Assembly: GCA_026395215.1 (NCBI GenBank)
Contig: JAPLZC010000010.1
Location: 140,150 to 204,149, forward strand
Source: Candidatus Staskawiczbacteria bacterium
GTDB lineage: Bacteria > Patescibacteriota > Minisyncoccia > Minisyncoccales > Staskawiczbacteraceae
Direction: 5' to 3'
DNA length: 64,000 nt
The position numbers and the translations under genes are program-made. The notes under the pieces were generated by a model. That model made no database searches. It had not been told where the DNA came from and saw only the letters and a list, made by a program, of their open reading frames with translations. Below are positions 31,878 through 43,832 of this stretch, piece by piece; the stretch's first letter is position 1; every line of letters starts with the position of its first letter.

Positions 31878-31888
31878 GATAATATAAT

Positions 31889-31968
31889 ACTAATCTACAA
31901 ATCTTATACTAATCTACAAAAATACGAATTCGTGTTTCCGTAGATTAGAATATTTTCCGTAGATTAGT
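31889..31968. repeat. Doubled inverted repeat around a central palindrome
   Basis: actaatctacaa x2, acgaattcgt, tttccgtagattag x2. Confidence 0.7.
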
Positions 31969-31974
31969 GTTTTG

Positions 31975-33258
31975 TTAGTTTTTTACTTTTTCCTTCATTT
32001 CTTCTACGACCTTGTCGAGTTTAATTTCTTTTTGAACACCTGTTTCCATGTCCCTCAAAGTTATAAACTCTTCTAATGCTTCTTTTTGCCCAAAAATCAA
32101 AACCCATTTTATATTCATTTTGTTTGCGGTTCTTAATTGGGCTTTTAAAGAATCCTTTGAAAATGATTCTGCTACAGGAATTTTTGCGTCTCTGAATTCC
32201 TCAAATAATTTCATACTTTTCCTTTTTGCTAACTGTCCTAACTGCGCTAAAAATATCTTCGGCTCTTCCTCTTTTTTACCAGTTTTCATTTCCCGCGATT
32301 TCATTAAAGAAACAATTCTTTCAATACCAGCTGCCGAACCGCAGGCTGGCACATCTCTTCCGCCCAGCATTTTAGACAAATTGTCATATCTCCCTCCCCC
32401 GGCCAAGGAGCCTAGCGCTTTCCCGTCTTCCGATGTTTCTACAATTTCAAAAACTGTTTTAGTGTAATAGTCCAACCCACGAACCAAATAAGGATTCAAT
32501 GTATATGGTAATTCCAATTCGTCCAAAAATTCCAAAACCTCTTTAAAGTGACCATGGCAACTTTCACAAAGGTGGTCTAATATTTGCGGGGCTCCAGCTT
32601 TTACGCGCTGGCATTTTTCTTCTTTGCAGTCTAAAATTCTCAGTGGATTTTCTTTAAGCCTTCTCTGGCAGTCTCCACACAAGGACGAACGTTTTGATTT
32701 TAAATAACTTGTCAGAATTTTTTTAAAATATGGCCTGCACTCCGAATCTCCAATTGAATTTACTTCAATTGTTAAATTTTTAAATCCCAACTCTTTTAAA
32801 ACGTCATAGCTCATCTGAATTGTCTGGCCATCAATTGACGGGCTGGCTTCCCCAATTGCCTCAAAGCCAAATTGATGAAACTGTCTAAACCTTCCTGCCT
32901 GCGGTCTTTCATATCTGAAAAACGGACCCATATACCAAAGCTTTACGGGCTGAGGCAAGTTGTGCATTCCATGCTCTAAATAACTTCGCATAACCGGAGC
33001 TGTTCCTTCTGGTCTCAAAGAAACCAAATCTCCGCCCTTTGTTCTAAAGGTGTACATTTCTTTGCCAATAATGTCTGTGTCATTGCCAACTGCTTTTTGA
33101 AAAACTTCGGCAAACTCTAAAATAGGAGTTTCAATTTTTTCAAAAGTATAAGAATTGGCAACAGACTCAACTACCTTTTGGACTCTTTTAAAATATATCT
33201 GGTCCTCGGGCAAAACATCGTGCATCCCGGTTAAAGTTTGATAATTTATTTTACTCAT
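31975..33258 (-). CDS. hisS: Histidine--tRNA ligase
   Basis: LRPEGTA, FRYERPQAGRFRQFHQ, LVRGLDYY, GGGRYD. Confidence 0.96.
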   Translation of the reverse strand: MSKINYQTLTGMHDVLPEDQIYFKRVQKVVESVANSYTFEKIETPILEFAEVFQKAVGNDTDIIGKEMYTFRTKGGDLVSLRPEGTAPVMRSYLEHGMHNLPQPVKLWYMGPFFRYERPQAGRFRQFHQFGFEAIGEASPSIDGQTIQMSYDVLKELGFKNLTIEVNSIGDSECRPYFKKILTSYLKSKRSSLCGDCQRRLKENPLRILDCKEEKCQRVKAGAPQILDHLCESCHGHFKEVLEFLDELELPYTLNPYLVRGLDYYTKTVFEIVETSEDGKALGSLAGGGRYDNLSKMLGGRDVPACGSAAGIERIVSLMKSREMKTGKKEEEPKIFLAQLGQLAKRKSMKLFEEFRDAKIPVAESFSKDSLKAQLRTANKMNIKWVLIFGQKEALEEFITLRDMETGVQKEIKLDKVVEEMKEKVKN

Positions 33259-33900: not shown

Positions 33901-34479
33901 ATGACAATAATTATTGGGTTAGGTAACCCCGGAAAAAAATTCGAGAACACTCGCCACAATGTTGGCTTTACCGCGATCGATAAAATCGCCGCGAATTTTC
34001 AATTTCCAATTTTTAATTTTCAATCAAGCTTCAATGCCGAAATTTCTCAAGGCGAAATTGCAAATAAAAAAGCCTTGCTGGTCAAACCGCAAACATTTAT
34101 GAATGATTCGGGAAAGTCTGTAAAAAAAATACTGTCGAAAAACAGAGACCAAGTTTCAGATATAATCGTCATCCATGATGATATAGACCTAGAAATCGGA
34201 AAAATAAAAATCATCAAAGAGCGAGGTAGCGCCGGCCATAAAGGAGTAGAATCAATAATCAAAGCCATCGGAAACGAAGGCTTAGTGAGATTCCGTATAG
34301 GCATTGGTGAGCGGACCCATGGACCGGTCCACGGGTCCAAGAAAGCTATGCAAATTGTCTTAAAAAAATTCACAACCGAAGAACAAAAAACAATAACCGA
34401 AACAATAATAAAAACCGCTGATGCTCTCAATTCATTTGTCACCGATGGCCTAGAAAAGACAATGAATAAATTCAATTAA
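33901..34479 (+). CDS. pth: Peptidyl-tRNA hydrolase
   Basis: GLGNPG, TRHNVG, KPQTFMN, HDDID, GHKG; divergent promoter TTGCAA..TATAAT upstream. Confidence 0.95.
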   Translation: MTIIIGLGNPGKKFENTRHNVGFTAIDKIAANFQFPIFNFQSSFNAEISQGEIANKKALLVKPQTFMNDSGKSVKKILSKNRDQVSDIIVIHDDIDLEIGKIKIIKERGSAGHKGVESIIKAIGNEGLVRFRIGIGERTHGPVHGSKKAMQIVLKKFTTEEQKTITETIIKTADALNSFVTDGLEKTMNKFN

Positions 34480-35455
34480 AAATTTTTACAACTTCCAGCT
34501 GAATCATTTTAGTATTCCCGTGTTTCAGAAGTCCTAAATAAGAATTCAACGTTTCAATACTTGAATTCTTTTTTATTCTATCAAACATTTTGTTCTTAGT
34601 CTTGTTTCTCAGAACTCTATGGTCATAATAATTAACCCAGCCGAGAAAATCCATACCGGAATATAGTGTTTTAATAAAGACTTTGTCAGGATGCAAAATA
34701 AGTTTTAGTTTGTTTTGTAAATATAGTTTTGTTACTAAAACCATATTTTCTAAATACTTTTTACTATCTGATAAAATAACAAAATCATCTGCATAACGAA
34801 TATAGTGTTTTACTTTTAGTTTATGTTTTACAAAATGATCAAACTCGTTTAAATAGATATTAGAAAAAAGTTGAGAAGTTAAATTGCCGAGGGGTAAACC
34901 GTTCGGCTTAAAGCTGAAAGTTATTTCTTTTAATAAATTGATAATATTTTTGTCTAAAATATGTTCTCTTAAAATATCTATCAAAATATTCTGATTTATA
35001 CTGGCGAAAAACTTTTTGATATCGCATTTTAAAACCCAGCAAGTTTTAGTGTTATTTTTTGAAACGATATATGCAAATTCTCTAAATCTATTTATGGCTT
35101 TGTGTGTGCCCTTGTTATTTCTGCAGGAGAACGAGTCAGAAATAAAAGTTCTATCAAAAAATGGATATAATATACGATAGATGGCTCGATGCAAAAGCCG
35201 GTCTCTTACGCTGGCTTTATGGATTATTCTCGGCTTTGGGTCGTTAATTTTAAAACATTCATATCCGCCATGTTTGTATGTGTTATTCTTTAAATCATTA
35301 TGTAATGATAATATATTATCCATCAGGTTAAACTGAAACTCTTGAACGTCTTTTTTATTTCGTTTCCCTTTCAAAAACTCCAGCCAAGCTAAAAGCAAAT
35401 TATCAATACTAACTAAATCATCAAATTTATGACACAGAATACTTTTCATAATCAA
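34472..35455 (-). CDS. DGR reverse transcriptase
   Basis: KPRII...RDRLLH, KGTHKA, KCDIKKFF, GLPLGNLTSQLFSNIYL, YIRYADD, DFLG; 327 aa, no maturase or RNase H. Confidence 0.95.
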   Translation of the reverse strand: MIMKSILCHKFDDLVSIDNLLLAWLEFLKGKRNKKDVQEFQFNLMDNILSLHNDLKNNTYKHGGYECFKINDPKPRIIHKASVRDRLLHRAIYRILYPFFDRTFISDSFSCRNNKGTHKAINRFREFAYIVSKNNTKTCWVLKCDIKKFFASINQNILIDILREHILDKNIINLLKEITFSFKPNGLPLGNLTSQLFSNIYLNEFDHFVKHKLKVKHYIRYADDFVILSDSKKYLENMVLVTKLYLQNKLKLILHPDKVFIKTLYSGMDFLGWVNYYDHRVLRNKTKNKMFDRIKKNSSIETLNSYLGLLKHGNTKMIQLEVVKIFN

Positions 35456-35836
35456 AATAATTATTCCTCTAATCCCCCAAAACTCTTACCTGTTTTAGAG
35501 AAAATTAAAAGTGCTTATCTTTTTTGGTACCAACACTATTTGATTATACCGAAAACGCATAGATATTCTTTGGGAGAAAAAATAGACAAATTTTTTGTTG
35601 AAACACTTGAAGCAATAATTACGGCGAGTTTTTTAAGTCAAAATGAAAAGTTACCTTATGTGCGTTTAGCAATCAGAAAAATAGACACTTTAAAAATATT
35701 TCTAATGCTTCTTTGGGAGACAAAATCTTTTGACAATAAAAAATATATCGCCCTCTCATTAAAATTAGACGAAATCGGGAAAAATCTTGGCGGGTGGTGC
35801 GGACAAATATTAAAACAAAACTCTCTCAAAAAGTGA
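35429..35836 (+). CDS. avd: Avd-like accessory variability determinant (four-helix bundle)
   Basis: IPKTHRYSLGEKID...LDEIGKNLGGW; basic, 135 aa; adjacent to DGR RT. Confidence 0.85.
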   Translation: MTQNTFHNQNNYSSNPPKLLPVLEKIKSAYLFWYQHYLIIPKTHRYSLGEKIDKFFVETLEAIITASFLSQNEKLPYVRLAIRKIDTLKIFLMLLWETKSFDNKKYIALSLKLDEIGKNLGGWCGQILKQNSLKK

Positions 35837-35853
35837 GCGAGGAATGAAAAGAG

Positions 35854-35985
35854 TTGCGAGCAGGCAGCCAGATTGCCACCATTCCAGTCATTGCTGAGCC
35901 AGTTGTAGTTCCAGTTCCACTTGCCATCATCATCACGATAGACATACAGTACGTTACGGTTGCCGTTAGGGTTCAGAATGATTTC
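35854..35985 (-). repeat. DGR template repeat (TR)
   Basis: Matches 36366-36497; AAY-rich, conceptually reading IILNPNGNRNVLYVYRDDDGKWNWNYNWLSNDWNGGNLAACSQ. Confidence 0.95.
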
Positions 35986-36203
35986 ACAAAATACCGTCTA
36001 TACCACCACCCTTTGAATACTCTTGGGGTTGAATCGGATTCGGTATCGTAATACCCTAGTATTTTGTGCCAAGTATTTTCATTTTTTGAAGTATTTATAC
36101 ACCCTCCGTCTGAATCCTTGAACGCAGACGCTCTCAGCGTATGAACACTGGATTCGGTAGCAGGAAACCGTGATCTCCCGCATATTCGCCTAATACCGCT
36201 TAT

Positions 36204-36212
36204 ATTTTATCA
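36204..36212 (-). promoter_or_regulatory. Putative extended -10 promoter for the TR RNA
   Basis: TGATAAAAT on the minus strand just past the target-gene terminator. Confidence 0.45.
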
Positions 36213-36226
36213 TAAATTAAAATATT

Positions 36227-36258
36227 AAAAAACCGGACACCATACTATGTATGTCCGG
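36227..36258 (-). terminator. Intrinsic terminator of the DGR target gene
   Basis: CCGGACA/TGTCCGG stem followed by a T-run on the minus strand. Confidence 0.65.
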
Positions 36259-36346
36259 CAAAGTTTGTGCTGTTCCAAACAGCGTTTTGTGGAAAATACC
36301 ACGATTGTTCTAAGGGCAAAGGATTTCAGGCCAAGACCTAATTTCC

Positions 36347-36361
36347 AAGTCCTAAGGACTT
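36347..36361. other. Hairpin/cruciform immediately 3' of VR, overlapping the stop codon
   Basis: AAGTCC-TAA-GGACTT, in the position of DGR target-recognition hairpins; absent after TR. Confidence 0.55.
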
Positions 36362-37004
36362 ATACTTGCGAGCAGGCAGCCAGATTGCCACCATCCCAGT
36401 CATTGCCGAGCCAGTCGTAGTCCCAGTGCCACTCGCCATCATCATCACGATAGACATACAGTACGCTACGGTCGCCGTCAGGGCTCAGAATGACATCGCC
36501 GAGGAAGGCGATGAAAGTTGTGCCATTCTGCTGGTACAACTTCTCCAGAACGCTTTCTGTCTTACGCGCCTGATAGTCCTGCCACAAGCCCATAAAGACC
36601 GTGGCTCCGTAGCGGATGGCTCCAGAGGCCTTCAGCCTTGCCAACTTCTCTTCCCCCTTGATTGGGGTTTCACCCTCTTTCAGGGAGGAGGTGAAGTTTG
36701 CCGAACCCAAGTCCACTTCGGTGAGGGCCACGGAAACCTTGTCCTGATCTTTTTGGACAATACTCCAGCCTTTGCCGAGGAACTTGATTGGGTCGAACGG
36801 AGCCGTGGCAAACTTGAGACCGCCGAAGATGAAATTCATACCGTTCTTAATGAACGCTGTCATCCTCCGCCCGATTTCCTCCGGTGGCAGACTGATCACA
36901 TTCGCCTGAAGTTTTTCTCCGTCGATTTGTTGCCAGTCGATCAGGGTTCCATTCCCGCACCGATTGATAACCTCGAAAGCTTGATTCTGTGTTACGACTT
37001 TCAT
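36360..37004 (-). CDS. DGR target (variable) protein, probable C-type-lectin fold, no signal peptide
   Basis: C-terminal VR; AAGGAAGG SD; GC-richer than RT. Confidence 0.9.
   Translation of the reverse strand: MKVVTQNQAFEVINRCGNGTLIDWQQIDGEKLQANVISLPPEEIGRRMTAFIKNGMNFIFGGLKFATAPFDPIKFLGKGWSIVQKDQDKVSVALTEVDLGSANFTSSLKEGETPIKGEEKLARLKASGAIRYGATVFMGLWQDYQARKTESVLEKLYQQNGTTFIAFLGDVILSPDGDRSVLYVYRDDDGEWHWDYDWLGNDWDGGNLAACSQV
36366..36497 (-). repeat. DGR variable repeat (VR)
   Basis: 12 mismatches vs TR over 132 bp, all at TR adenines (10 A>G, 1 A>C, 1 A>T). Confidence 0.95.
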
Positions 37005-37184
37005 GACACTATCCTTCCTTCGTTTTGCCGACTTTTATTTCCTCACCACCCGGTGAAAAAACTCTATCGGCGTCTGTGCTATGGCGTTTTGCCACACCAG
37101 AAAATTGTTTATTTCTAAACCGCTTTCTGGCATGGCAAAAATAAGTATCTTGTGCTGTAAATGTGCTAATTCGCTATATTATTA

Positions 37185-37213
37185 ATTATACACCTAAATA
37201 GCACCTTTGTCAA
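37185..37213 (-). promoter_or_regulatory. Perfect consensus sigma-70 promoter of the DGR target gene
   Basis: TTGACA-17 nt-TATAAT. Confidence 0.85.
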
Positions 37214-37216
37214 TGG

Positions 37217-37245
37217 TTGAAAAACATCAGTTTCCCCGCTATAAT
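37217..37245 (+). promoter_or_regulatory. Divergent promoter for mfd
   Basis: TTGAAA-17 nt-TATAAT, ending 12 nt before the ATG. Confidence 0.7.
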
Positions 37246-37257
37246 TACGCAATGTGA

Positions 37258-39252
37258 ATGGATAAAACTGCTAAAGAATTAACCCAACTTTTAATTGTCG
37301 GCATTACCCCCTATTTTTTAGATAAGGAGGTTTTTTGGTTTGAGGAGAATCTACAACAAGTGTTAGATGCCAGGCATACTCAAAACTTTTTTGAAGATAA
37401 TATAGTTTTTTTGGAAAAAGACCATAGTTTCCAGTTTTCACAATTTTTGAGGAAGCTTGATGAAATGGGTTATGAAAGGGTTTTTAAGGTTTCAGAACCT
37501 GGTGAATTTTCCCAACGCGGAGGAATTATTGATGTCTTCCCTATCAACTGTCTTCAAGCTGCGCGAATTGATTTTCTTGGAAATGAAGTAGATAATATTC
37601 AGTTGTTAGATGATAAAAAATTCTATCCTGCAAAACTTTCGGAAGAAGAGTTTAAAAAAACAAGGGAGGTTATAAAAAAGAAACTGAAATCGCAGAAACT
37701 GTTTTCGGAGCTAAAAGGATTGAAGGCGGGAGACTATCTTGTGCACCTTGATCATGGAATTGGAAAATTTATTGGCATAGAAAAGTTTGAGACTACTGTT
37801 GGAGAGTTTCAAGAATACTATGTTCTGCAATATGACAAAGAAGATAAGCTTTATATTCCACTTGGTTTAGAAAGAAAATTATCTAAATATGTTGGTTTCC
37901 AAGACCCAAAAGTTTCCAGACTGGGCTCATCCTTATGGCAAAAAACTAAAAGAATAATAAAAGAAGAAGTTGAGAAATTAGCCAAGGAGCTTTTGCAGTT
38001 ATATGCAAAAAAAGAGATTACAGAAAGAACACCATATATAGAAGATAAAGAATTGGAGTCACAGATTAGAGACAGTTTTCCTTTTCAAGAAACTCCCGAC
38101 CAAATCAAAACAATAGAAGACATAAAAGACGACCTTTCAAAAAACAGGCCAATGGATAGAATTGTGTGCGGAGATGTTGGCTTTGGCAAAACAGAGGTTG
38201 CTATAAGAACAGCTCTGTTAGCTTGTGCAAACAATAGGCAAACTGCATTAATTTGCCCTACTACAATTTTGGCAAATCAGCATTATAATGGGTTCAAAAG
38301 AAGATTTGATAAACTACCGGTTAGAGTTGCCATACTTTCCGGTTTGCAGACAAAACAAGAACAGAAGAAAATAATTGGCGATATAAAAGAAGGCAGGGTA
38401 GATATTGTTATAGGCACCCACCGACTTTTGTCTCGAGACATAGAATTTAAAAATCTACAGCTTTTAATTATTGATGACGAACAAAAATTTGGAGTAAAAC
38501 AAAAAGAAAAATTGCGCCAAATGAAAACCAGTTTAGATGTTTTGAGTTTGTCAGCCACTCCAATCCCCCGCACAATTTATTTGGCATTATCTTCATTAAA
38601 AAGCATAAGTTTAATGCAAACTCCCCCACAAGGAAGACAAGCAATAAAAACAGAAGTTGCCCCTTACGACACAAAATTTGTTAAAAAAATAATCCATGCT
38701 GAACTTAGTAGAAAAGGCCAAATTTACTTCTTGCATAATGTGGTGCAAACAATTGAGACAAAGGCAGCTGAAATAAAGAAACTCTACCCACGGGCAAAAA
38801 TTGGCGTAATCCACGGTAGAATGCCAGAAAAACATTTGCTAGAAATAATGGACAACTTCCAAAAAGAAAAAATAAATGTTTTAATGGCAACTACAATTAT
38901 AGAAAATGGAATCGATTTTCCCAACGTAAACACAATTATAATAGAAGACTCTACAAGATTGGGACTTTCACAAGCACACCAAATAAGAGGAAGAGTTGGC
39001 AGGTCTGGTACAAAAAGTTTTGCATACTTCCTATATAACGACAAAGATATGACCCCGCTGGCTAGAGAAAGGCTGAAAGCATTAGAAGATTCCCAGGAAC
39101 TTGGAGCCGGGTATAGAATTGCAATTAGGGATTTGGAATTGCGTGGAGCGGGAAACATTTTAGGCAAAGAACAATCCGGTGCCATAAATAAAGTAGGACT
39201 AAACCTATATTCTCAGCTTTTGGCAGAAAGTATAGAGAAGTATAAAAGTTAA
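37258..39252 (+). CDS. mfd: Transcription-repair coupling factor (compact Mfd)
   Basis: GEFSQRGGIID, CarD-like VHLDHGIG, GDVGFGKT, DDEQKFG, QIRGRVGRS, DLELRGAG; no C-terminal TRCF domain. Confidence 0.9.
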   Translation: MDKTAKELTQLLIVGITPYFLDKEVFWFEENLQQVLDARHTQNFFEDNIVFLEKDHSFQFSQFLRKLDEMGYERVFKVSEPGEFSQRGGIIDVFPINCLQAARIDFLGNEVDNIQLLDDKKFYPAKLSEEEFKKTREVIKKKLKSQKLFSELKGLKAGDYLVHLDHGIGKFIGIEKFETTVGEFQEYYVLQYDKEDKLYIPLGLERKLSKYVGFQDPKVSRLGSSLWQKTKRIIKEEVEKLAKELLQLYAKKEITERTPYIEDKELESQIRDSFPFQETPDQIKTIEDIKDDLSKNRPMDRIVCGDVGFGKTEVAIRTALLACANNRQTALICPTTILANQHYNGFKRRFDKLPVRVAILSGLQTKQEQKKIIGDIKEGRVDIVIGTHRLLSRDIEFKNLQLLIIDDEQKFGVKQKEKLRQMKTSLDVLSLSATPIPRTIYLALSSLKSISLMQTPPQGRQAIKTEVAPYDTKFVKKIIHAELSRKGQIYFLHNVVQTIETKAAEIKKLYPRAKIGVIHGRMPEKHLLEIMDNFQKEKINVLMATTIIENGIDFPNVNTIIIEDSTRLGLSQAHQIRGRVGRSGTKSFAYFLYNDKDMTPLARERLKALEDSQELGAGYRIAIRDLELRGAGNILGKEQSGAINKVGLNLYSQLLAESIEKYKS

Positions 39253-39353: not shown

Positions 39354-39923
39354 CTACGCATTACTTCGTTTCAAATCTTTGAAACTTGCTGGCATAAGAG
39401 TCACCGACTCAATTTCGACAATCGGCTTTTTCTCACCCCTACGCCTGATGGAAAATGGACCGCCAGTGATTGTAAAAAGTCCCAAACGCTCTTTGTAAGC
39501 AACTGTTGGCGGACCTTCAATAATTAGGTAATCATCTGGAAAAGCCGGCCCTCGAAAGTTGCTGGCGCCATAACCCTTCGAAGCCACTTTATTATCTTTG
39601 CCAAGACGAGCTAGCACCTTTGGCTCTCTGGAAATCATAATCCCAAAAAATTGGGCAGCCATGTCGTACCAAATACAACCCGGCGCCAAAAGTACGCCGT
39701 CTATGACGTGACCTCTACAGATTTCACCAATGAAAAATAGTTCCCCTATTGCTTTGTTAACAGATGTGACTGTGTCAACAAAAAATGTGACTGTGTCTAT
39801 AAGATGCCACCAACCTTCGTGAGGAAGAATTGCGTCAACCTCTTGTTTCCCCAAAACTACTTTGGGTTGATTGACGAGAAGTTGGGCTATCCATTCAATA
39901 GGTACTCTAGCAGATTCCTGCAT
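39354..39923 (-). CDS. FabA/FabZ-like hotdog-fold protein (divergent)
   Basis: ILPHEGWWHLID, RGHVIDGVLLAPG, DMAAQ, FRGPAFPDD. Confidence 0.65.
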   Translation of the reverse strand: MQESARVPIEWIAQLLVNQPKVVLGKQEVDAILPHEGWWHLIDTVTFFVDTVTSVNKAIGELFFIGEICRGHVIDGVLLAPGCIWYDMAAQFFGIMISREPKVLARLGKDNKVASKGYGASNFRGPAFPDDYLIIEGPPTVAYKERLGLFTITGGPFSIRRRGEKKPIVEIESVTLMPASFKDLKRSNA

Positions 39924-40071: not shown

Positions 40072-42099
40072 ATGATTTTACTACTGGTAGAGAGCCCAAC
40101 GAAAGCTAAAACTCTGGGAAAATTTCTCGGCAAAGACTACAGGGTCTTGGCGTCTTTTGGGCATGTTAGGGATTTGCCTAAGAGAGAGCTTGGGGTTGAT
40201 GTGGAACATAATTTTGAACCAAAATATGTGGTTCCCACAAAAGCCAAGAAGGTTATTGCTGAGTTGAAAAAGGAATCTGCAAAAGCAGACCAAACCATAC
40301 TGGCGTCCGACGAAGACCGTGAAGGAGAATCTATCGCCTGGCACTTACAAGAAGCCCTTAAGTTAAAAAACCCTCAGAGAATTGTGTTCCATGAAATTAC
40401 AAAATCTGCAATTGAAAATGCCTTAAAAAATCCAAGACACATTGATATGAATTTGGTTAATGCCCAGCAGGCAAGAAGGGTTTTAGACAGAATTGTGGGC
40501 TACAAACTTTCGCCATTTTTGTGGAAAAAAGTTGCCAAAGGACTTTCGGCCGGCCGAGTTCAATCGGTTGCCTTGAGACTAATTGTTGAGAAAGAAAGAG
40601 AAATTGAAAAATTTGTTGCTGTTGAATATTGGAATCTTGAGACCACACTTAAAAAAAATAATACAGAATTCAAAGCATCTTTAACAAAAAATAACGGCAA
40701 GGTTATAGACAAGCTGGAAATTAAAACCAAAGAAGAAGCTGATAAAATTTTACAAGCATTAAATGGGTCAGATTATGTTGTTGAGTCTGTAGAGAAGAAG
40801 GAAACAAAAAGACATCCTGCTCCCCCATTCACAACCAGTACACTGCAACAAGCAGCTTGGCAAAGATACAAATTTTCAGCAAAAACGACAATGTCTTTGG
40901 CTCAAAGATTATATGAAGAAGGAAATATAACTTACCACAGGACAGACTCGCTAAATCTTTCAGAGGTATCACTAACTGCAGCTAAAGATTTTATTTTTAA
41001 CCAATATGGGCAAAATTATTGGGCTGGCAAAGCTGTAAAATATAAAACAAAGGATGGTTCAGCCCAAGAAGCTCACGAAGCAATTAGGCCGGCTTATGCT
41101 GAAAAAACCCCCGAGTCGCTTGGATTAACCGATGCAAGGCAATTAAAACTTTACACTTTAATCTGGCAAAGGTTTATGGCTTCGCAAATGGCACCCGCTG
41201 TCTTTGACTCGGTTTCATCTGACATACAAGCAAGCAATTTTACATTTAGAGCAACTGGCCAAACAATAAAGTTTGACGGGTTCTTAAAAGTTTACCCAAC
41301 AAAAACCGAGGAAACCATTCTGCCTCCTTTAGAAAAAAACGATAAGCTTAATCTTGTAAAATTAGAAGCCTTACAGCATTTTACAGAGCCACCTGCAAGA
41401 TACACCGAAGCTAGCCTGGTAAAAGCTTTAGAAAAACACGGCATTGGCAGACCATCTACTTACGCCTCTATTATAACCGCTATAACGATTAGAAACTATG
41501 TAGCCGAAAATGACCAAAAAAGACTCTTCCCAAGCGAGATGGGAACAATAGTTAATGACGTGCTTGTAAAAAACTTTCCAGAAATAGTTGATGTAGATTT
41601 TACCGCAAAAATGGAAAAAGAGTTAGATGAAGTGGCAGAAGGCAAAGATACTTGGGAAAAAACATGCAAAGATTTCTATAAACCCTTTGCAAAAAACTTG
41701 GAAGAAAAGTATAAAGAAGTTATAAAGTCTGATTTGACCCAAAAAACAGATAAGGTTTGTCCAAAATGCGGAGCTCCTCTAATTGAAAGGCTCGGCAGAT
41801 TTGGAAGGTTTTACGCCTGTTCAAAGTTCCCTGAATGCAAACATACAGAATCTGTTGAAGGAGATCCAGATACCTTGAATATATCCTGTCCAAAATGCAA
41901 AGAAGGAAAAATTACCGGCAAAAGAACAAAAAAAGGCAAAACATTTTATGGATGTAATCGTTTTCCAAAATGCGATTTTGCTTTATGGGATAAGCCAATA
42001 AATGAACTTTGCCCAAAATGTGATTCACTGCTAATACAAAAAACCAAAACCAAAATAAAATGCTCAAATAAAGAGTGTGATTACACCAAAGAAGATTAA
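40072..42099 (+). CDS. topA: DNA topoisomerase I
   Basis: VESPTKAK, DEDREGE, SAGRVQS, ITYHRTDS, Zn ribbons. Confidence 0.97.
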   Translation: MILLLVESPTKAKTLGKFLGKDYRVLASFGHVRDLPKRELGVDVEHNFEPKYVVPTKAKKVIAELKKESAKADQTILASDEDREGESIAWHLQEALKLKNPQRIVFHEITKSAIENALKNPRHIDMNLVNAQQARRVLDRIVGYKLSPFLWKKVAKGLSAGRVQSVALRLIVEKEREIEKFVAVEYWNLETTLKKNNTEFKASLTKNNGKVIDKLEIKTKEEADKILQALNGSDYVVESVEKKETKRHPAPPFTTSTLQQAAWQRYKFSAKTTMSLAQRLYEEGNITYHRTDSLNLSEVSLTAAKDFIFNQYGQNYWAGKAVKYKTKDGSAQEAHEAIRPAYAEKTPESLGLTDARQLKLYTLIWQRFMASQMAPAVFDSVSSDIQASNFTFRATGQTIKFDGFLKVYPTKTEETILPPLEKNDKLNLVKLEALQHFTEPPARYTEASLVKALEKHGIGRPSTYASIITAITIRNYVAENDQKRLFPSEMGTIVNDVLVKNFPEIVDVDFTAKMEKELDEVAEGKDTWEKTCKDFYKPFAKNLEEKYKEVIKSDLTQKTDKVCPKCGAPLIERLGRFGRFYACSKFPECKHTESVEGDPDTLNISCPKCKEGKITGKRTKKGKTFYGCNRFPKCDFALWDKPINELCPKCDSLLIQKTKTKIKCSNKECDYTKED

Positions 42100-43832
42100 T
42101 GATAAATAATATTCAAAAAATAATAAACAAAAGTTCTGATCCTAAACTGATTGAGAATGCATTTAAGTTTGCAACAGAAGCATATAAGGACAAATTTAGA
42201 GCCTCCGGAGAAAACTGCATTTTACATACAACAAGAGTAGCTTTAATGCTTGATAAAATGGAGCTTGACCCAACAACAATTGCTCTTGGAATTCTTCATG
42301 ATGTATTAGATGATGTCCCGGGTTATGCCAGGAAAATTGAAGCAAAAGAAATTGAAAAAAAATTTGGTGTAGATATAGGGCAGCTGGTAGAAAAAATTGC
42401 GGATCTCAGCAGAATTCAATATTCTCTATCTGTTGGCATGAAAGAGAAAAAGGCACTGACCAGAGAAAAAATTGAAAATTTAAGAAGGATGTTTTTAGCG
42501 CTGTCTGGAGACTTACGGGTGGTTATAGTAGAATTGCTTTCAAGGATGGATGGCTTAAATGAACTGCACTATTTGTCACGAGACAAACAAAAATTATTTT
42601 CAGCAGAAACTTTGCAGGTTTTTGTGCCTATTGCCAGCAGACTTGGTTTGTCAGAACTAAGAAGAAATCTTGAAGACGTTGCTTTCTCATATTTATTGCC
42701 GGAAAAATTTAAGTGGATAAAGGAAAATATTAAAGGACAATATGAGGAGAGAGAAAAATATCTGAAAAAATTTATTCCTCACCTTGAAAAAATCCTCAAA
42801 AAAGAAAGAGTTAAATTTTTGAGTATAAATTACCGGGCAAAATCTTATTGGAGCACTTATCAAAAACTCATAAAACATGGAATGGATTTTGATGAGATTA
42901 ATGATTTGCTTGCATTGAGAATAATCACCGCCGATGTTGAAAGTTGCTACAGAATTCTGGGCATAATGCATAAATACTTCAAACCTATTTCTGAAGAAAT
43001 AAATGACTATATCGCCCACCCAAAACTCAACGGATACAGATCCTTGCACACTACAATTTTTTCTCATGAAGGAAAAATAACCGAGGTACAAATAAGAACA
43101 GAAGAAATGCAGAAGGAAGCTGAATATGGCGTGTGCGCTCACTGGTCTTACAAGGAAAAAATTAACCTTGCAAAAGACAAAGAAAATTTTGAATGGACAA
43201 AAAATATCCCTGAATTTTGGAAAACTTTTAAAATCGACTTTTTCTCTAACAAAGTTTTTACTTTCACCCCAAAGGGAGACGTTATTGTTTTACCCAAAAA
43301 CTCAACTCCTGTTGATTTTGCGTATGCCGTGCATTCAGACATTGGAAACCATTGCGAATCTGCAAAAATAGGAAACAAAATAGTACAGCTTAACCATATT
43401 TTAGAAAATGGGGACATAGTTGAAATATCCACAAATAAAAACAAAACTCCTTCAAAGGACTGGCTTAAATTTGTTCAAACCTCTTTAGCTAAGTCTCACA
43501 TAAATAGGCTAACCGGTCAGGAAAAATCAGGTTTTCGCTTTCCAATGCCAAACTTTATAAGAAAGAAAATTACTGAAATTTCTGAAGCTTCAAAAAAGAA
43601 AAAAGAGCAAAAGGAACTTTTGAAAAAAGAAGGCTCAAAACATATTTATATAGCCGGTCAAAAAGGGATGCTAATTCACATAGCCAAGTGCTGTAATCCC
43701 CAGCCGGGAGACAAAATTATGGCCTATATTGCCCCAAATAGAGCGACTGTTTTACATAAAAGCACCTGCAATGTTTTCAAAGAAATTTACAGAAAATTTC
43801 CAGAAAAAACCATCAACGCCTCCTGGGAATAA
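42099..43832 (+). CDS. RelA/SpoT-family (p)ppGpp synthetase with TGS domain
   Basis: LHD, RAKSYWS, PKLNGYRSLHT, EVQIRT, TPVDFAYAVH, AKCCNP. Confidence 0.92.
   Translation: MINNIQKIINKSSDPKLIENAFKFATEAYKDKFRASGENCILHTTRVALMLDKMELDPTTIALGILHDVLDDVPGYARKIEAKEIEKKFGVDIGQLVEKIADLSRIQYSLSVGMKEKKALTREKIENLRRMFLALSGDLRVVIVELLSRMDGLNELHYLSRDKQKLFSAETLQVFVPIASRLGLSELRRNLEDVAFSYLLPEKFKWIKENIKGQYEEREKYLKKFIPHLEKILKKERVKFLSINYRAKSYWSTYQKLIKHGMDFDEINDLLALRIITADVESCYRILGIMHKYFKPISEEINDYIAHPKLNGYRSLHTTIFSHEGKITEVQIRTEEMQKEAEYGVCAHWSYKEKINLAKDKENFEWTKNIPEFWKTFKIDFFSNKVFTFTPKGDVIVLPKNSTPVDFAYAVHSDIGNHCESAKIGNKIVQLNHILENGDIVEISTNKNKTPSKDWLKFVQTSLAKSHINRLTGQEKSGFRFPMPNFIRKKITEISEASKKKKEQKELLKKEGSKHIYIAGQKGMLIHIAKCCNPQPGDKIMAYIAPNRATVLHKSTCNVFKEIYRKFPEKTINASWE

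Follow-up and report, generated by a model that had tools for sequence, protein, structure and literature searches.

A chromosomal diversity-generating retroelement of a Candidatus Staskawiczbacteria bacterium with a conserved leader upstream of the template repeat as the likely source of its primer

Introduction

Diversity-generating retroelements (DGRs) have one worked-out mechanism, that of BPP-1, and in BPP-1 and BMP-1 the spacer (Sp) that carries the primer lies downstream of the template repeat (TR). The chemistry of priming is disputed, a branch at a 2'-OH being set against a 3'-OH left after nicking (Handa et al., bioRxiv 2023.10.23.563531; Naorem et al., PMC5703328), and how the cDNA finds the variable repeat (VR) has been called an unanswered question (PMC5703328, PMC12875486). 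In the candidate phyla radiation (CPR), 90% of the DGRs have architecture B3, which is TR-(avd)-reverse transcriptase (RT) with a reversed avd gene (Wu et al. 2018, PMC5758913). Here we describe a DGR in a window of 64,000 nucleotides (the whole stretch analysed; contig JAPLZC010000010.1, positions 140,150 to 204,149, assembly GCA_026395215.1) of a Candidatus Staskawiczbacteria bacterium, an ultra-small Patescibacteria bacterium with a 100% complete genome of 772 kb. It is likely that this is an intact chromosomal DGR of TR-(avd)-RT layout in which a leader upstream of the TR supplies the primer and the tip of a target with a C-type lectin-like (CLec-like) fold is rewritten.

The cassette has the gene order and the antisense avd of architecture B3 and is itself a new member of a catalogued CPR class; the layout of its RNA is the more interesting part. 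The literature searched, which held few subscription papers, describes neither an upstream or permuted DGR RNA nor the CTTG array reported below, and the CPR predictions of Handa et al. (Fig. S18, Table S3), which lie outside that search, may bear on novelty. Wu et al. and Roux et al. (2021, PMC8144416), in the sections consulted, report no upstream leader, primer register or CTTG array.

Results

Cassette and adenine record

The cassette consists of the following parts.

34472..35455, minus strand: DGR reverse transcriptase, 327 aa, TTG start with an in-frame ATG at 35449 as alternative, frame intact
35429..35836, plus strand: avd accessory gene, antisense to the other parts, its last codons overlapping the hairpin that follows the TR
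35854..35985, minus strand: TR, 132 nt, 37 adenines
36366..36497, minus strand: VR, target codons 170-213
36360..37004, minus strand: target gene, 214 aa, with a three-helix N-terminal part and a predicted CLec-like domain (about residues 61-214)

The frames of the RT, the avd-like gene and the target are all intact. Unlike RT, TR and target, the avd gene lies on the plus strand; its 5' end overlaps the RT start head to head, and it converges on the TR. As the original prediction held, TR and VR align on the minus strand over 132 nt without gaps at an offset of 512, and all 12 differences are found at TR adenines (10 A>G, one A>C and one A>T; hypergeometric p=5.3e-8). Asn codons take eight of the 12 changes, to Asp five times, to Ser twice and to His once, and each of the seven AAC codons of the TR is altered by a single change. 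The other four are E>D, I>V, K>E and S>G, and the VR has become acidic, Asp plus Glu rising from 5 in the TR to 11. Across 31 TR/VR loci, this one included, 539 of 602 mismatches are at A and 61% are A>G.

The predicted RT motifs LGNLTSQ and YADD are present. The best solved relative of the RT is the Bordetella bRT (130 bits, E 8e-37), the top-scoring group II intron RT reaching 73 bits (E 2e-19). In a tree of 38 rows with long branches, which has no retron, Abi or DRT rows and excludes 12 loci (duplicates, fragments and one unannotated RT) and frames below 250 aa, 34 DGR-type RTs including the focal one split from four group II intron RTs at 100/100, and the focal RT stands, again at 100/100, inside a Patescibacteria group of 21 rows. 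The nearest named RTs, at 74-77% identity, are those of Candidatus Staskawiczbacteria, and relatives of the RT occur in 28 of the 61 genomes searched (24 of 36 within the same family). In the alignment the equivalents of bRT K29, F66, R74, I76, D138, Q187, D215 and D216 are retained, whereas that of I181 is Leu, as in most relatives; active-site and template-contacting roles, including roles in adenine mutagenesis, were assigned to bRT residues by Handa et al. (bioRxiv 2023.10.23.563531).

The accessory gene was recognised as Avd-like by model NF033474 (E 9e-17 over 103 of 104 positions, 61 bits, cut-off 80) and by PF22296 (E 2e-9, 38 bits, curated cut-off 40), with no sequence match in the PDB. 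It is antisense to the RT in 27 of the 28 loci with both genes. The single exception, L020, has avd on the RT strand; this locus and L019 have longer RTs (open frames of 445-497 aa) that group with phage DGR RTs.

A duplication or assembly artefact beside an unrelated RT, such as that of a group II intron or a retron, could in principle yield a repeat pair next to an RT gene, and the top NCBIfam score at the locus does belong to a group II RT model. This score is 141 bits against a cut-off of 300, however, the retron and DRT family models reach 35-70 bits against cut-offs of 200-600, and group II identity is contradicted by the SQ motif in place of PQG..SP, by the length of 327 aa and by the lack of any Rfam intron match at the locus. 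The same cassette is moreover found in many other genomes, and independent contigs cover parts of it unchanged. The adenine-only mismatches (p=5e-8) and the tree exclude this explanation, the chance of which is negligible. Adenine-only mismatches, RT placement and an Avd-like gene together make up the signature of DGR retrohoming that was originally proposed, and the identity of the element as a DGR is practically certain.

A leader upstream of the TR

On the minus strand, 215-240 nt upstream of the TR align well across 26 related loci. These are 26 of the 31 TR/VR loci, L012-L015 and L017 being excluded as members of other RT branches, and 21 of the 26 are retained in the subset A4. The features of the predicted RNA and of the VR end are listed from 5' to 3', with the VR element last; all are on the minus strand.

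36204..36212: extended -10-like element, candidate template-RNA promoter; similar in relatives by eye (uncounted) and absent from the promoter scan list
36149..36198: 5' domain that includes hairpin A (36181-36160); the loop of this hairpin has the motif of the Avd-binding hairpin of BMP-1
36097..36142: hairpin B with a YAMG-type loop, candidate Avd-binding hairpin
36069..36084: predicted primer strand with the invariant G36070 (predicted priming base) and G36069 (opposite G35857)
36058..36068: 5' strand of an 11-bp stop-like helix, with covariation
36030..36055: short stem-loop (36055-36042), then GAA and a single strand that is conserved and similar to the A-minor/Thumb Ring segment of BMP-1, with a presumed like role
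36008..36029: stem-loop at the position of the RT-binding stem-loop, with a presumed like role
35985..35995: 3' strand of the stop-like helix just 5' of the TR, 98% paired, 10 of 11 pairs changed on both sides; putative counterpart of the cPRT Stop duplex
35842..35857: strand resembling IMH* (IMH, initiation of mutagenic homing), the pairing partner of the primer strand upstream; copying is predicted to begin at G35857
35812..35841: hairpin (35841-35821) and U-rich tail after the TR, 79% of cells paired
36362..36369: IMH of the VR, exactly complementary to the primer strand over 7 nt, beginning beside G36369

From 5' to 3', the leader thus holds two loop-motif hairpins, an A-rich strand, two invariant G and the 11-bp helix that closes just before the TR, with the short stem-loop, the GAA, the conserved single strand and the further stem-loop inside this helix. 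What follows the TR is limited to the partner strand and to a hairpin, U-rich in its tail, that overlaps the avd end. This hairpin is likely the terminator of the template RNA; alternatively, it may bind Avd. RNAalifold gives 49 pairs for the leader, 40 of them with changes on both sides, and a 70-pair structure drawn from the window sequence has 90.5% of its cells paired against 74.9% in shuffled alignments, none of 500 reaching the observed value; sliding lowers the share to 41-51%. Covariation supports the leader helices and also the long-range pairing of a leader strand with the TR 3' end. The loop motif of the BMP-1 Avd hairpin is found in 22 of the 26 leaders, compared with 56 sites genome-wide, and the conserved single strand shares 6-10 of 12 positions, mostly 8, with BMP-1 Sp79-90. 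A leader model matches 21 of the 61 relatives' genomes, held-out copies being located 0.5-0.8 kb upstream of RT matches, and a one-hairpin form occurs in another RT branch (L012).

Three loci (L030, L029 and L052) match the 5' part of the leader only, and L025, L031 and L042, which are of different lineages, share a near-identical 25-nt insertion that extends the short stem-loop in the stop-like helix.

Predicted primer register

The predicted primer strand pairs with the TR 3' end of its own locus better than with permuted partners (-6.7 versus -5.3 kcal/mol, p=3e-5, 26 loci), also when a subgroup of five loci is dropped (p=2e-5). In a single register it pairs with VR positions 1-5 in 96-100% of the 26 loci, with compensatory changes. 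Its pairing is imperfect with the TR and perfect with the VR over the first five positions, and extends to 7 nt in the focal locus and up to 13 nt elsewhere. IMH and IMH* accordingly differ at their 3' ends, the primer being more complementary to IMH. At position 0, G opposes G in 26 of 26 VRs and in 25 of 26 TRs, and the same two patterns are given by BMP-1 Sp57-42. Of the 152 TR/VR mismatches within 40 nt on the 5' side of the anchor, 148 affect an A, and most of those from the anchor onwards do not. Since the register coincides with the end of the adenine-specific mismatches, priming from G36070 is predicted, with G35857 as the first copied base. On these comparative grounds a primer strand upstream of the TR is probable, while G36070 is marginally favoured as the priming base.

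It may instead be that the upstream strand is only the partner of a stop or closing duplex in a genuine DGR, and that priming takes place from RNA 3' of the TR as in BPP-1, with the hairpin there binding Avd. Handa et al. placed putative Avd hairpins just after the TR and, in a set of 278 DGRs that takes in CPR ones, reported upstream/downstream duplexes for 207, and no covariance-model match links the leader to the BPP-1 Sp. Their analysis covered just 40 nt upstream of the TR, however, and a strand 85-100 nt upstream was therefore invisible to it. The 150 nt that follow the TR are mostly avd antisense, with at best a 4-nt complement to the VR end, against 7 nt in register in the leader. Upstream is also the direction indicated by the opposed G of the anchor, by the mismatch boundary and by complementarity to the VR, and we regard downstream priming as unlikely.

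Several observations weigh against the upstream-primer interpretation. The loci are related, so that permutation p values and shuffle controls are inflated. The focal RNA alone folds no better than its shuffles (z -0.23), its primer pairs weakly with the TR (-5.6 kcal/mol, which ranks sixth among the 26 partners), and RNAalifold returns neither the primer duplex nor the 3' hairpin. BPP-1 primes from A, different from the G predicted here, and A56G abolished homing there unless compensated (PMC5703328). The Rfam model RF03022 (Phage_DGR) has no match at the locus, yet scores 105 bits on the BMP-1 Sp, and the leader model is without a match in the BMP-1 locus at E<=10, only the topology and short motifs being common to the two. 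Likewise, no other Rfam family and none of the motifs RT-1 to RT-19 (PMC5737381) was matched at the locus.

Recipient flank after the VR

Two features lie 3' of the VR.

36310..36356, minus strand: CTT(N)G array that immediately follows the stop codon of the target, its five units 7-9 nt apart or at multiples of this distance
36233..36259, minus strand: GC-rich hairpin and T tract, candidate target stem-loop and/or terminator of the target mRNA, absent from the terminator scan list

A hairpin had been placed at the 3' end of the VR. The flank is indeed structured, folding as DNA better than 200 of 200 shuffles (z -3.8), but the small hairpin is part of the CTTG array and, judged by eye, is not kept in relatives; the hairpin common to them is the GC-rich one about 110-130 nt downstream of the VR. 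A stem-loop downstream of the VR was found in only 34% of DGRs by Wu et al. (PMC5758913). The CTT(N)G motif, which was picked after the data had been seen, occurs 111 times in the 31 loci versus 38 +/- 5 in shuffles, with a spacing of 7-8 nt (autocorrelation z 11 at both lags and 5.6-6.3 at lags 14-16), and 3.6 times per VR end versus 0.36 at 465 host open reading frame (ORF) ends; two of the 31 loci are without units. BMP-1 has one CTTG unit after the VR, unlike the several seen here, and any role given to the array is a guess.

Probable recent activity

The activity of the element was assessed from assembled contigs. In run X4, which belongs to another study, the region 36319-36469 is covered by a contig of 151 nt that differs from the focal VR region in 10 letters. 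All seven listed differences are at TR-A positions, which are 27 of the 104 positions compared (p=4e-5), and they change D189, H193, D195, G200 and N207, while X3 and X4 contigs over the TR, avd and the promoter side are identical to the focal sequence. This pattern is what a DGR active since the split of the two populations would leave. The record is thin, however: a single contig of depth 3.1 stands for the X4 allele, three of the 10 differences are unlisted (p=3e-3 in the worst case, if these are non-A), and the two possible source runs show a single VR allele. Breaks in X1 and X2 contigs at 36436-36464 were considered as a sign of polymorphism and rejected, this stretch being identical in TR and VR.

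One may ask whether the DGR is well preserved but now silent, its VR record being old. The changed share of adenines (10 of 34 in the trimmed repeat, 0.29) is the second lowest of the 31 loci, whose median is 0.58. The source runs show one VR allele, broken cassettes are common among relatives, DGRs of clade 2 are below average in activity (PMC8144416), and the focal leader is mismatched in one conserved 5' helix and in the 3' hairpin. The share of 0.29 is however close to the misincorporation of about 31% at A, with C preferred (which gives A>G), that one round of BPP-1 produces in E. coli (PMC12875486). Three intact genes, zero non-A differences between TR and VR and the A-restricted other allele with identical flanks also speak against silence. 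A silent element is thus improbable, and the recent activity claimed by the original prediction, for which the second allele is suggestive and its single low-depth contig a weakness, is likely.

Target protein

The target has no Pfam or NCBIfam family, and none of the 148 family members scanned has a Pfam match; among PDB sequences it has no match either (best E 0.58). A first pass gave 39 relatives among 214 candidates, and a profile search 1546 clusters (50% identity) at E<=0.001. Two models of the target have pLDDT values of 92 and 97, and in the fold search 49 of 50 and 50 of 50 top rows belong to the CLec superfamily as judged from their titles, including Mtd and TvpA. As in Mtd (1yu0), TvpA (2y3c), TaqVP (5vf4) and AvpA, the domain is predicted to be closed by its N- and C-terminal strands, and the VR is C-terminal and covers the last strands. 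The similarity is distant: Z is at most 4.8, with residues 61-214 covered by the CLec matches, no viral fold match was obtained and Foldseek returned none at E<=0.001. AvpA is absent from both top-50 lists, an absence that weighs neither way. The target scores 3.7-3.8 to Mtd, 3.6 to TvpA and 2.8 to TaqVP; AvpA, an accepted CLec protein (PMC5006420), reaches 2.6 to Mtd. It shows no sequence similarity to the CLec variable proteins, deviates from them by 4-5 A (root-mean-square) and differs by its additional three-helix N-terminal part. A CLec-like fold is, based on these models, nonetheless probable.

In the model the variable residues alternate with Trp/Tyr on strand 192-198 and crowd the 174-180 hairpin, and they may form one binding face. 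The claim that the target lacks a signal peptide agrees with the absence of any hydrophobic segment (best 19-residue Kyte-Doolittle mean 0.96), which was judged by hydropathy. The target is putatively a cytoplasmic ligand-binding protein, as the original prediction held, the CLec-like match of the models being weak. The same DGR mechanism could, on the other hand, serve a target that is displayed on the surface or on pili by way of a partner, or of export that went unrecognised, and that has phage or host cells as its ligand, a matter of localisation that is compatible with all else reported here. The closest folds include adhesin tips (Bd2740, InvE, intimin and Mtd), and Roux et al. do not decide whether those CPR targets that lack membrane domains are in fact non-membrane proteins (PMC8144416). 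The N-terminus is however not hydrophobic, the gene is monocistronic with no export or pilus gene adjoining, no longer fusion form was found among 7996 candidates (a weak test), and the fold itself shows no function. We therefore treat display as possible but doubtful.

An 18-nt motif of the TR occurs four times in the supplement of Wu et al., the two places shown being in the uVR2 file, and the TR peptide pattern fits two uVR2 rows by eye. The UVR2 targets were left without a fold there, and the CLec-like model suggests one for these unclassified proteins. The target is also, like those of DGR clade 2 (PMC8144416), without membrane or known domains.

An RT lies within the fetched flank in 13 of 43 loci with a target relative, and many copies are therefore stand-alone or cut by contig ends. 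The other 30 include L022, L023, L026, L030, L036 and L039; several RT-less loci have 5 kb on either side and no TR/VR pair, and may be remote or retired targets. In the Atlas, a 745-aa AAA+ ATPase family from Minisyncoccota has a domain similar to target residues 68-214, a C-terminal match (TM 0.53) which recalls the P-loop NTPase targets of Wu et al.; the other structure neighbours there are unnamed.

Discussion

Genes, repeats, the adenine-specific record and the antisense avd are observed. By analogy with BPP-1, an RNA of about 385 nt would run from the extended -10 element (36212) to the hairpin and U tract (about 35812), and hairpins A and B would bind Avd. Copying would start at G36070 opposite G35857 and stop at the 11-bp helix just 5' of the TR. 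The RT-Avd complex would be error-prone at adenines, and its copy would take the place of the target tip, where some 22 variable codons (up to 4e19 peptide variants) may form the ligand-binding face. The RNA primer on the cDNA may pair with the IMH DNA of the VR, so that VR is picked over TR, and the CTTG array and the GC-rich hairpin may help to open the target DNA.

Compared with BPP-1 as described by Handa et al., the order of the leader is that of Sp3-33, Sp47-56, G57, Sp59-70, Sp71-81, the Thumb Ring and the RT-binding stem, shifted to before the TR, and the spacer equivalent is thereby wholly 5' of the TR instead of downstream. The leader furthermore has two loop-motif hairpins, the antisense avd lies outside the stop helix, the DGR is chromosomal and its target is not a phage tail fibre. 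We lean, by a small margin of belief, towards a dominant type of Patescibacteria DGR with a circularly permuted RNA, in which the whole spacer precedes the template and is made from its own promoter, priming occurs from an internal G, primer and IMH co-evolve and steer integration, and the recipient is marked by a CTTG array of 7-8 nt period, on which the Avd pentamer might land.

Better pairing of the primer with the VR was proposed as the basis of target choice by Naorem et al. (PMC5703328), and the natural covariation of primer and IMH gives this proposal comparative support and ready compensatory pairs. The layout differs from the only mechanism worked out and makes the questions of priming and targeting testable. 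If the primer lies upstream, the products expected under the two priming models are distinct: in one the cDNA is carried by a 130-nt piece of leader without TR, in the other the full-length RNA is branched. Tools for DGR-based mutagenesis might also profit from a template RNA that is self-contained and kept apart from the avd and RT coding sequences.

Genomic setting

The cassette is bounded as follows.

33901..34479, plus strand: pth, left flank, overlapping the RT stop by 8 nt
37185..37213, minus strand: sigma70 consensus promoter of the target, 12/12 match
37258..39252, plus strand: mfd-like helicase, right flank

The chromosomal location that was first proposed is borne out by the position between pth and mfd, two genes that directly adjoin each other in 10 of the 17 same-genus genomes with the pth locus; the cassette is therefore an insertion in a housekeeping region. 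No prophage surroundings are apparent among the ORFs at 28-44 kb of the window. RT (GC 0.29) and avd (0.30) are AT-rich, TR (0.49) and target (0.53) GC-rich. The TTGACA-17-TATAAT promoter of the target was found at 37213-37185 as claimed, and back to back with it an 11/12 sigma70 site at 37217-37245 (plus strand) faces mfd. The insertion may thereby have given mfd, which directly follows pth in relatives, a new promoter.

Other genomes also carry DGR parts near pth. At the pth-mfd junction, G002 has a similar cassette whose RT and avd matches are each split near their overlap, G006 an avd remnant and a different TR/VR pair, and G024 a target relative without RT; in G036 a DGR from another RT branch adjoins pth. 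The junction may be a recurrent insertion site or hold an old cassette that was repeatedly replaced. A run of five C at 35473-35477 (plus strand) lies near the 5' end of avd and a short way upstream of where the RT starts on the minus strand, and L013, L014 and L072 have much longer G/C runs in the same region; a slippage switch is a possible function of this sequence.

A second complete B3 DGR is found on the same contig (G000:C15:40620-43360), with 16 of 17 mismatches at TR A.

40620-41393, plus strand: target of the second DGR
41268-41391: its VR
41783-41906: its TR
42311-43360: its RT, with avd antisense

A strand in its leader is an 8-nt complement of its own VR end, and the Thumb-Ring-like and loop motifs are those of the focal leader. 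The RT is 47% identical to the focal RT and from another branch, TR and target are unrelated, and the focal leader model has no match in it at E<=0.001. BLASTN and an ungapped scan blind to A over all 15 contigs gave no remote VR for the TR of either DGR, the best other site in the scan having 45 of 95 non-A matches. A rule of replication orientation was dropped, as GC skew puts the focal target on the G-rich strand and that of the second DGR on the other.

Elsewhere in the window, ORF 39354-39923 (minus strand, 189 aa) has weak FabZ-like hot-dog matches far under cut-off, and the host lineage is not known to synthesise fatty acids. An imperfect inverted repeat with 49-nt arms (76%) and internal short repeats occupies 31880-31977, in the intergenic gap after a hisS-like gene.

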